Source: Escherichia phage BUCT823
Sequence record: PQ729991.1
Strand: one strand, 5' to 3'
DNA length: 40,637 nucleotides
A program made the position numbers and the translations under genes. Below are positions 24,095 through 25,004 of the stretch, in pieces; position 1 is the stretch's first letter, and each line of letters begins with the position of its first letter. The notes under the pieces were generated by a model that saw only the letters and a program-made list of their open reading frames with translations, ran no database searches and was not told where the DNA came from.

Positions 24095-24595
24095 ATGGAT
24101 TGGAGTGAGGTTTTTAGCTACAAAAACGGCGTCCTATACTGGAAAGTCAAATCATGTCGCCGTAACGATGTGAATATAGGTGATGTGGCCGGGAGTTTGT
24201 GTAAAAACGGCTATTGGTACGTCATGTTTGGTAACCGTAAGTTTAAAAGGTCGAGGGTGGTGTACGAGATGTTCTCAGGTAAGATTCCAAAAGGATTTGT
24301 AATAGACCACACTAACCATGATACCTGTGACGACAGAATTGAAAACCTGTCATGCAAATCCAGAAGGGACAACATGGTTAACGTGAAAAGGCGCAAAGAT
24401 AATACCTCTGGAGTTACTGGTGTGGCGCGGAAAGGAAAAACTAAGTGGAGAGCTTATGCCGTTGTCAACGGTAAGCAGATTAGTAAAACATTTGACAGAA
24501 TAGAGGACGCTTTCGCTGAAAGAATTTACATGTCTGCGGCTAATAGGTTTCACATAAATCATGGACTGACAACATTCAACAACGGTTATAAATAG
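24095..24595 (+). CDS. HNH homing endonuclease with AP2-like domain (166 aa), paralog of 12564-13049
   Basis: IDHTNH...D..RI.NL motif; AGGTGA RBS. Confidence 0.75.
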   Translation: MDWSEVFSYKNGVLYWKVKSCRRNDVNIGDVAGSLCKNGYWYVMFGNRKFKRSRVVYEMFSGKIPKGFVIDHTNHDTCDDRIENLSCKSRRDNMVNVKRRKDNTSGVTGVARKGKTKWRAYAVVNGKQISKTFDRIEDAFAERIYMSAANRFHINHGLTTFNNGYK

Positions 24596-24604
24596 GGCGT
24601 AGAG

Positions 24605-24835
24605 ATGACTTCAAAATACAACCGCACAATGACAAACACTCACGGCAGCACCATGACGGTAGACGTTTATGACGTATTGCGCGCCTTCGACATCCGCGAC
24701 CCGGCGTTACAGCACGCATTGAAGAAGCTATTGTGTATGGGCCTTCGCGGACACAAGGACACCGGAACAGACTTAGCGGAAGCAATTGAAAGCCTGGAGA
24801 AGTTACGGGAGTATAGAAGCAATATCGACGAATAA
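24605..24835 (+). CDS. hypothetical protein (76 aa)
   Basis: ORF track; tightly spaced after the HNH gene. Confidence 0.5.
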   Translation: MTSKYNRTMTNTHGSTMTVDVYDVLRAFDIRDPALQHALKKLLCMGLRGHKDTGTDLAEAIESLEKLREYRSNIDE

Positions 24836-24849
24836 CTACGAGGTATTTT

Positions 24850-24972
24850 ATGAAACTCATTATTAACTTCTTTAAAGCCTTAACAGGTAACGATTTTGAG
24901 ATTGACGGAGGTTGGCTAGTGTATGACCCTTCTTTTGATACTTGGTTGTGGCATAAAGAGAAACCTCGATGA
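24850..24972 (+). CDS. hypothetical small protein (40 aa)
   Basis: ATG at 24850 with GAGGT RBS; ends 2 nt before the terminator. Confidence 0.35.
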   Translation: MKLIINFFKALTGNDFEIDGGWLVYDPSFDTWLWHKEKPR

Positions 24973-24973
24973 G

Positions 24974-25004
24974 AAAAAGGCCCCGAAAGGGGCCTTAGTT
25001 TTAT
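24974..25004. terminator. bidirectional rho-independent terminator
   Basis: GGCCCC-GAAA-GGGGCC hairpin between an A-run and TTAGTTTTA; near-identical to 13185-13215. Confidence 0.75.

Follow-up and report, generated by a model that had tools for sequence, protein, structure and literature searches.

Two diverged, freestanding and probably homing HNH endonuclease genes, rather than one duplicated cassette, in Escherichia phage BUCT823

The two HNH endonuclease genes of Escherichia phage BUCT823, referred to here as HNH-A and HNH-B, are probably freestanding homing endonuclease genes of the HNH(HNN)-AP2 class, separate from each other and diverged long ago, as judged from comparison of their loci with those of related phages. 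Both genes are intact and lie on the plus strand of the window, the 40,637-nt stretch of DNA that was analysed, and a tblastn search of the window found no third HNH copy or remnant. The slots of the two genes are separate and variable, HNH-A being placed at the 3' end of a conserved SNF2 helicase gene and HNH-B at that of a conserved Mre11-like exonuclease gene. Each HNH gene also marks the right-hand limit of a tract that has passed between Salmonella Jerseyviruses and E. coli Kagunaviruses. The first-pass annotation of this DNA had recognised the two HNH genes as paralogs, and both open reading frames are present where it placed them (Table 1). It had further suggested that they belong to a mobile cassette that copied itself together with its terminator, which could also explain the arrival of the plus-strand island around HNH-B. 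These last two suggestions are not borne out by the comparisons described below.

By megablast against a phage collection, the window belongs to the genus Kagunavirus of the Guernseyvirinae. Its best match there is Escherichia phage SZH-1 (92.8% over 72% of the first 25 kb), and HSE2, XY1 and others come next; the Salmonella Jerseyviruses are more distant relatives, and the window backbone is about 68-75% identical to theirs. HNH-A lies in the plus-strand replication unit, which ends at ~13183 and converges on the minus-strand tailspike gene (13260-15467). HNH-B belongs to a short plus-strand island (22695-24972) that interrupts the minus-strand tail module, with the tail assembly chaperone genes on one side and the tail tube gene (25001-26173) on the other. 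At both loci the HNH gene is near the end of the plus-strand unit and is followed by one or two small ORFs and then by a hairpin at the convergent junction with a minus-strand tail gene. The order of HNH gene, small ORFs and terminator had been described correctly before.

Table 1. Coordinates of the features at the two HNH loci, in positions of the window
Feature	Position	Strand	Basis or remark
SNF2-family DNA helicase gene	11137..12567	+	Pfam SNF2-rel_dom and Helicase_C
Exchange tract A (helicase 3' end and HNH-A)	12250..13046	+	Identity profile and alignment
HNH-A, intact gene for a 161-aa HNH_3 and AP2-like endonuclease	12564..13049	+	Pfam; phrog_99
45-aa coiled-coil-like ORF	13046..13183	+	phrog_5915; resident gene with 100% identity in SZH-1, which lacks HNH-A
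Hairpin terminator A, AAAAGGCCCC-GTTT-GGGGCCTTAGTTTTA	13186..13214	.	Predicted bidirectional; junction of replication unit and tailspike gene
Promoter-like box	22625..22656	+	Upstream of plus-strand island; repeated at 31186-31217
Superinfection immunity protein gene	22695..22886	+	First island gene; Pfam Imm_superinfect, 51.5 bits; phrog_1039
Mre11/SbcD-like 'DNA repair exonuclease' gene	22925..24079	+	phrog_704; HNH-B-associated allele type from ~23207 on
Exchange tract B (3' two-thirds of exonuclease gene and HNH-B)	23207..24603	+	Identity profile and alignment
HNH-B, intact gene for a 166-aa I-HmuI-like HNH and AP2-like endonuclease	24095..24595	+	Pfam; phrog_99; profile; model
76-aa ORF	24605..24835	+	phrog_2452; resident gene in both genera, with or without HNH-B
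40-aa ORF	24850..24972	+	Rare variable gene; no PHROG family
Hairpin terminator B, AAAAGGCCCC-GAAA-GGGGCCTTAGTTTTA	24975..25003	.	Predicted bidirectional; 3' flank holds stop codon of tail tube gene (minus strand)

Both proteins score above the curated cut-off (24.8 bits) of the Pfam HNH_3 family (PF13392), HNH-A with 42.3 bits and HNH-B with 58.2 bits, and phrog_99, 'HNH endonuclease', is the best PHROG family of each. They align with one another from end to end at 33% identity over 159 residues (E 1e-12), which indicates members of one family and not recent duplicates. A third HNH protein of the same family, encoded at a third site in the Jerseyvirus f18SE, is 43% identical to HNH-A and 39% identical to HNH-B, above their mutual identity. 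The family is very widespread, with homologues in 2,300-3,000 phage records.

The AP2 label given to these proteins by the first-pass annotation holds for HNH-B at the level of profile and fold similarity, but not at that of the Pfam family. The Pfam AP2 model (PF00847) reaches 25.1 bits in HNH-A, under the curated cut-off of 33.3, and gives no match in HNH-B even at E values up to 10; a precomputed AP2 call (PF00847) together with HNH_3 is recorded for 10 of 47 database homologues of HNH-B. Single-sequence searches against solved structures returned nothing useful, and profiles were required. A 47-sequence profile headed by HNH-B matches I-HmuI (1u3e) at positions 29-104 (E 1.1e-9), and AP2-domain structures at positions of about 100-156, with E values from 1.6e-5 to 6e-3 for WRI1 (1.6e-5), TEM1 (2.8e-4) and AP2IX-6. 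The AlphaFold model of HNH-B built from the homologue alignment has a pLDDT of 84.3; a prediction from a two-sequence alignment (pLDDT 42) was left out of the fold search. The C-terminal domain of the HNH-B model comprises three strands (110-113, 117-124 and 127-133) and one helix (136-149). I-HmuI is its best Foldseek match (E 4.6e-4, probability 1.00), and the next matches are TEM1 AP2 domains, with probabilities of 0.96-0.99 but E values of about 0.2. Residues D71, H72, N84, N93 and N96, which form a His/Asn/Asn-type catalytic motif, are invariant or nearly so among the 47 HNH-B sequences. In both HNH-A and HNH-B, the predicted architecture is a His-Me nuclease domain like that of I-HmuI and, C-terminal to it, an AP2-like DNA-binding domain.

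HNH-A is closely fitted between its neighbours. Its start codon overlaps the stop codon of the helicase gene (ATGA), and its stop codon overlaps the GTG start of the 45-aa ORF. The window is SZH-1-like up to about 12200, with about 80-99% identity per 100 nt across the helicase gene. Based on the identity profile, the alignment and a codon comparison, the last ~310 nt of the helicase gene (12250-12563) are part of the tract that travels with HNH-A. This tract, from about 12250 to 13046, is 92-98% identical to f18SE, while its helicase part is only 63-73% identical to SZH-1 and to the Jerseyvirus Ent3; from 13047 on, the window is 100% SZH-1-like. In the C-terminal 100 codons of the helicase gene, 94 nucleotides and 22 residues differ from SZH-1, compared to 13 nucleotides and 1 residue from f18SE. 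HNH-A is missing in SZH-1, HSE2 and Ent3. The slot holds an annotated 63-aa ORF in SZH-1, nothing annotated in HSE2, and nothing in Ent3. The helicase 3' end alleles are bimodal in the phage collection, with 140 records at an identity of at least 90% and 284 at 60-80%. The helicase/HNH-A junction is present in 51 records, and about 90 show a helicase end of the HNH-A type but not the full junction. In phage 26, HNH-A is a pseudogene with two in-frame stop codons in a locus that is otherwise 96% identical.

Compared to the HNH-free alleles, in which the exonuclease gene and the 76-aa ORF overlap by 4 nt, HNH-B sits in a ~553-nt insertion between these two genes. The window is 91-96% SZH-1-like to about 23200 and SZH-1-like again in the 76-aa ORF. 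Between these points, the stretch from ~23207 to the stop codon of HNH-B shows 94-99% identity to Ent3 and about 50% to SZH-1 and f18SE. HNH-B is missing in SZH-1, f18SE, hz69 and phiEc3, and only one other Escherichia phage in the collection, buks, appears to carry it intact. The alleles of the 3' part of the exonuclease gene are again bimodal, with 165 records at an identity of at least 90% and the rest at 80% or lower or undetectable. About 115 records contain the exonuclease/HNH-B junction, and in about 50 the exonuclease allele of the HNH-B type is not accompanied by an intact HNH-B. Among the degenerate forms, SETP3 has an in-frame deletion of 456 nt of HNH-B (window 24131-24586) between AACGG repeats, a microhomology deletion that leaves a 14-codon scar, and about 45 further records stop matching at the same coordinate. 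In XY1 the first 61 codons of HNH-B remain, fused to unrelated cargo, and other records have kept terminal HNH fragments alone.

Both HNH genes are polymorphic among the relatives, being present, absent or decayed. The identity of the window switches at 12250 and 13047 for tract A and at 23207 and 24604 for tract B. Between these switch points it is 92-99% identical to Salmonella Jerseyviruses, and the identity to the closest E. coli relative falls to 50-73%. Considering the much lower identity of the backbone to the Jerseyviruses, both tracts have crossed the genus boundary recently. Site polymorphism, a co-transferred flanking tract and degenerate copies in relatives are hallmarks of freestanding homing endonucleases, and the genome comparisons show all three. 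The earlier proposal that each gene is of a mobile homing-endonuclease nature is supported to this extent, since a search of the relatives found HNH-free alleles at both sites and both genes are linked to horizontally exchanged tracts. The tight spacing of each HNH gene to its neighbours suggests that it is probably expressed from the resident operon.

It should be mentioned that the linkage of the flanking allele to the HNH gene is not absolute at either locus, as the allele types are also found without the HNH genes, and this is a caveat on homing. The slots in relatives also hold non-nuclease cargo, namely the 63-aa ORF, a 66-aa ORF and an acid phosphatase gene, so that ordinary modular recombination at conserved patches could give similar mosaics. 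In addition, the exchange tracts end in conserved patches, which are the expected places for any homologous crossover. For these three reasons a minor share of the weight stays with an alternative in which the HNH genes are accessory or domesticated nucleases, serving for example in competitor exclusion or in attack on host DNA, and are shuffled by ordinary homologous recombination with no self-promoted homing. We consider this alternative unlikely. The repeated inactivation and deletion of the genes in otherwise viable phages argues against a needed function, and the right edge of each exchanged tract falls within about 10-50 nt of the end of the HNH ORF. The protein class is also the classic class of phage homing endonucleases (PMC2248197, PMC10448857). 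Unlike packaging-associated HNH proteins, neither gene adjoins terminase genes. A packaging-type role, as for the HNH genes beside the terminase genes in some cos phages, was considered separately and rejected, the terminase genes being about 10 kb away and on the other strand.

If HNH-A and HNH-B are homing endonucleases, as we consider probable, their spread may be pictured as follows. The AP2-like domain would recognise a sequence that the upstream gene carries in its HNH-free allele, and during co-infection the enzyme would nick or cut that allele near the slot. Repair from the HNH-bearing genome would then copy the HNH gene along with upstream flanking sequence (co-conversion). The HNH-bearing genome itself would be spared because its flanking allele has diverged by 27-50% at the DNA level.

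I-HmuI, a nicking enzyme encoded by phage SPO1, is the best match of the N-terminal ~105 residues of HNH-B by both profile and fold, with the His/Asn/Asn-type motif conserved. In contrast to the BUCT823 genes, which are freestanding and have an AP2-like end, I-HmuI is intron-encoded and has another C-terminal DNA-binding module. Freestanding HNH(HNN)-AP2 genes have been described in phages T1, Rtp, T5 and RB16/RB43 and in the Xanthomonas phages Xp10/OP1/Xop411 (PMC2248197, where Magnani et al. 2004 is cited on HNH(HNN)-AP2 genes). Such genes disperse and decay in phage genomes and occur in multiple diverged copies (PMC2248197). The BUCT823 genes resemble this group in their two-domain architecture, in the presence of several diverged copies per genome at different sites, in the absence of conserved flanking DNA, and in the truncated and decayed copies found in relatives; HNH-B is 62% identical to an HNH gene product of phage T1. 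The positions in the Xanthomonas phage study are more dispersed, whereas each Guernseyvirinae lineage keeps to one fixed slot and goes with a particular allele of the gene upstream.

In ICP1 and other phages, homing endonuclease genes have been found at the edges of exchanged tracts, beside essential genes (PMC10448857), and in lactococcal Skunaviruses the I-HmuI-like HNH genes cluster by insertion site and exclude markers (PMC12724721). The BUCT823 loci are similar in that a nuclease gene has an essential or conserved gene as its neighbour and borders a tract of high identity that otherwise diverged phages have in common, and in the grouping by insertion site. They differ in that the tracts are short (0.8 and 1.4 kb) and are not islands of >10 kb. 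The nearest counterparts are the Guernseyvirinae orthologues, Ent3 gp22 of the HNH-B type and f18SE gp11 of the HNH-A type, which match the BUCT823 genes at 92-98% nucleotide identity and share their slots and neighbours. There is no substantial difference from these orthologues, although the two genes together are uncommon in an E. coli Kagunavirus. More than 100 phage records already list orthologues of the HNH genes as HNH or homing endonucleases, and homing endonucleases and inteins have been mentioned among the mobile elements of Jerseyviruses (PMC8425127). Our search for literature treating freestanding homing endonucleases together with co-conversion found none.

The alternative proposed initially is that one cassette of HNH gene, small ORF and terminator was duplicated within the genome and may have carried the 22695-24972 island along. 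The similar order of parts at both loci, the membership of both proteins in one family, and terminators that match at 26 of 29 positions, when no match is expected by chance, are all in its favour. However, when the two loci were aligned at the nucleotide level by sensitive blastn with a 7-nt word, no similarity was found beyond the 29-nt hairpin, which argues against duplication, as does the low identity of the two proteins. The small ORFs fall in different PHROG families, with a weak match of coiled-coil type between them. HNH-free relatives have the hairpins and small ORFs in unchanged form: SZH-1 and HSE2, both without HNH-A, keep the 45-aa ORF region and the hairpin, and SZH-1, hz69 and phiEc3, without HNH-B, as well as XY1, with its HNH-B fragment, keep the 76-aa ORF or an equivalent. 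The two genes also assort independently, since all four combinations of presence and absence exist, with both in the window, neither in SZH-1, HNH-A alone in f18SE and HNH-B alone in Ent3. Taken together, these observations leave duplication of such a cassette very improbable.

All eight relatives examined at this locus, from both genera and with or without HNH-B, have the island itself, comprising the superinfection immunity gene, the exonuclease gene, the 76-aa ORF and the terminator, which indicates that HNH-B did not bring it in. The 40-aa ORF occurs in four records, which correspond to three other E. coli phages, and the two phages inspected (hz69 and phiEc3) lack HNH-B.

Three weaker resemblances between the loci were considered and dismissed. 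The ends of the small ORFs match over 25 nt (E 0.02), and the AP2 coding region contains a stretch of 58% nucleotide identity; these were judged to reflect chance or protein-level similarity. Paralogy of the 45-aa and 76-aa ORFs would rest on 38% identity over 37 residues, a coiled-coil-type match obtained with no composition correction, and the two belong to phrog_5915 and phrog_2452, respectively.

The two terminators had been reported as identical except for the loop. This is correct over 29 nt, where the three differences are all in the loop, but the 31-nt intervals that had been quoted also differ at their first and last base. The shared pattern has exactly two matches in the window, compared to none in 100 shuffles. 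Both elements fit the intrinsic bidirectional type as predicted terminators, with a GC-rich hairpin that is preceded by an A-tract and followed by a T-tract where convergent genes meet, and both hairpins fold stably on either strand (-15.4 to -21 kcal/mol, z -3.4 to -6).

Across the relatives, the hairpin sequence tracks the genus and not the HNH status. Terminator A is identical in SZH-1, without HNH-A, and in phage 26, and has one loop base changed in HSE2, also without HNH-A. The terminator B element is found at the tail tube junction of SZH-1, hz69 and phiEc3, which are without HNH-B, and of XY1. Terminators A and B have the AAGGCCCC/GGGGCCTT stem that is common to most terminators in the Guernseyvirinae. 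On these comparisons, the small ORFs and both predicted terminators are resident features of two convergent transcription junctions and not endonuclease cargo.

As for the resemblance of the two hairpins to each other, a plausible but tentative reading is that they share one ancestor or have been gene-converted within the Kagunavirus lineage, independently of the HNH genes. This reading concerns the terminator pair only and is compatible with the homing explanation. It is favoured by the same flanks, AAAA...AGTTTTA, and the same 8-bp stem at both junctions in all Kagunaviruses inspected, whatever their HNH status, and by the Jerseyviruses, in which the AAGGCCCC/GGGGCCTT stem occurs at 4-5 junctions, some of them without an HNH gene nearby, but with other flanks. 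Independent convergence on a strong stem is the alternative origin of such a pair. The A-tract, the GC-rich stem and the T-tract are functional needs of a bidirectional terminator, so that only about 10 positions would be free to vary, and the GTTT and GAAA loops differ and are not reverse complements; both points speak against common ancestry or homogenisation.

The two HNH insertions are ordinary, already known phage biology, and nothing at these loci falls outside it. The analysis mainly corrects the record, in that a similar gene order and a look-alike terminator are not evidence of a duplicated mobile cassette. The locus may instead be viewed as a textbook-style pair of independent, probably homing, endonuclease genes, each at the border of a short tract that phages of different host genera have exchanged. 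The intact, stop-codon, scar and empty alleles are all in public genomes, which makes this a convenient system for studying HNH-AP2 target recognition and marker exclusion. Only the cross-genus tracts, the full range from intact through decayed to empty alleles, and the hairpin behaviour in relatives (loop flips, inversion and Ant-bracketing copies) are mildly unusual. A more far-reaching notion, that the AAGGCCCC hairpins and not the HNH genes could be a recombination device delimiting exchangeable cassettes and, separately, that the HNH genes may drive gene flow between Salmonella and E. coli phages, is speculative and appears quite doubtful.

Three further observations were made on the hairpins. 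The loop flips between GAAA and TTTC among close relatives. The whole 31-nt tail-tube terminator is inverted between Kagunavirus and Jerseyvirus. In Jerseyviruses, the Ant gene is flanked by two direct copies of the AAGGCCCC hairpin.

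In the Salmonella Jerseyvirus SETP3, HNH-B, the endonuclease gene 3' of the Mre11-like exonuclease gene, survives as a remnant, a 14-codon scar ORF (MDWSEVFSYKNGYK), 456 nt having been deleted in-frame between AACGG microhomologies. The same break coordinate is found in about 45 other records. An ORF of the Escherichia phage XY1 opens with HNH-B codons 1-61 (60/61 identical) and continues into unrelated sequence; it is annotated as a phosphoesterase and is followed by two more cargo genes. HNH-A, the copy 3' of the SNF2 helicase gene, is a pseudogene in Escherichia phage 26, with in-frame stops at codons 47 and 121, and the gene annotation covers the first 46 codons only. 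The two HNH slots are also occupied by different cargo in relatives, and the slot ORF of SZH-1 has no PHROG match.

Coordinates of HNH remnants, slot cargo, hairpins, promoter-like repeats and selfish elements in the window and its relatives
Feature	Genome (record)	Coordinates
HNH-B scar ORF	SETP3 (L009)	1751-1795
HNH-B-fragment ORF	XY1 (L001)	3096-3659
HNH-A pseudogene	phage 26 (L005)	2164-2649
66-aa ORF, HNH slot	hz69 (L010)	2189-2389
Acid phosphatase gene, HNH slot	phiEc3 (L011)	1890-2378
63-aa ORF, HNH slot	SZH-1 (L004)	2165-2356
Tail-tube terminator	window	24975-25003
Tail-tube terminator	phiEc3 (L011)	2743-2782
Tail-tube terminator	hz69 (L010)	2742-2781
Tail-tube terminator	SETP3 (L009)	2815-2854
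Tail-tube terminator	Ent3 (L007)	12795-12834
Hairpin pair around Ant gene	f18SE (L008)	21303-21342, 22088-22127
Hairpin pair around Ant gene	SETP3 (L009)	2031-2070, 2815-2854
Promoter-like element/palindrome	window	1806-1835, 5237-5266, 5281-5310, 7397-7426, 10884-10913
Further promoter-like/palindrome sites	window	455-468, 778-791, 22641-22654
32-nt box	window	22625-22656, 31186-31217
Inteins, helicase and DNA polymerase genes	Ent3 (L007)	26641-27684, 29238-30134
Third HNH	f18SE (L008)	1885-2406

Close relatives carry either GAAA or its reverse complement, TTTC, in the terminator loop, with the flanks unchanged. In Jerseyviruses, compared to Kagunaviruses, the entire 31-nt tail-tube terminator is oppositely oriented relative to the tail tube gene. 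The anti-repressor (Ant) gene of Jerseyviruses has one copy of the same hairpin on each side, in direct orientation; Kagunaviruses have a single hairpin and lack the Ant gene. Such hairpins may mark the insertion points of cassettes.

A promoter-like element, TTGACAnnTGAATAGTTnGCTATTATAGTT, with the palindrome AATAGTnnnCTATT inside it, is repeated in the window, and these repeats may form a promoter-plus-operator family. Two copies are located just upstream of the start of an HTH repressor-like gene (5001-5216, minus strand), divergent from it. The structural module, on the minus strand, contains two plus-strand islands, 22695-24972 and 31340-32063, each preceded by a 32-nt box, TTGCrCACCCCAATATAATAGkrTACTATTCA, the two window copies of which are 91% identical. 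The products of the second island are proteins of unknown function.

The helicase gene and the DNA polymerase gene of Ent3 contain inteins that are missing from the window. f18SE and HSE2 carry another member of the HNH-A and HNH-B family, a third HNH, upstream of the nuclease gene; this slot is empty in the window (region 5882-7392). With the Ent3 inteins and the third HNH, the sites that selfish nuclease elements occupy in Guernseyvirinae therefore number at least five. The DNA polymerase region of the window (8416-10565) is an additional mosaic patch, with 72-77% identity to SZH-1 versus 93-97% in the neighbouring regions.
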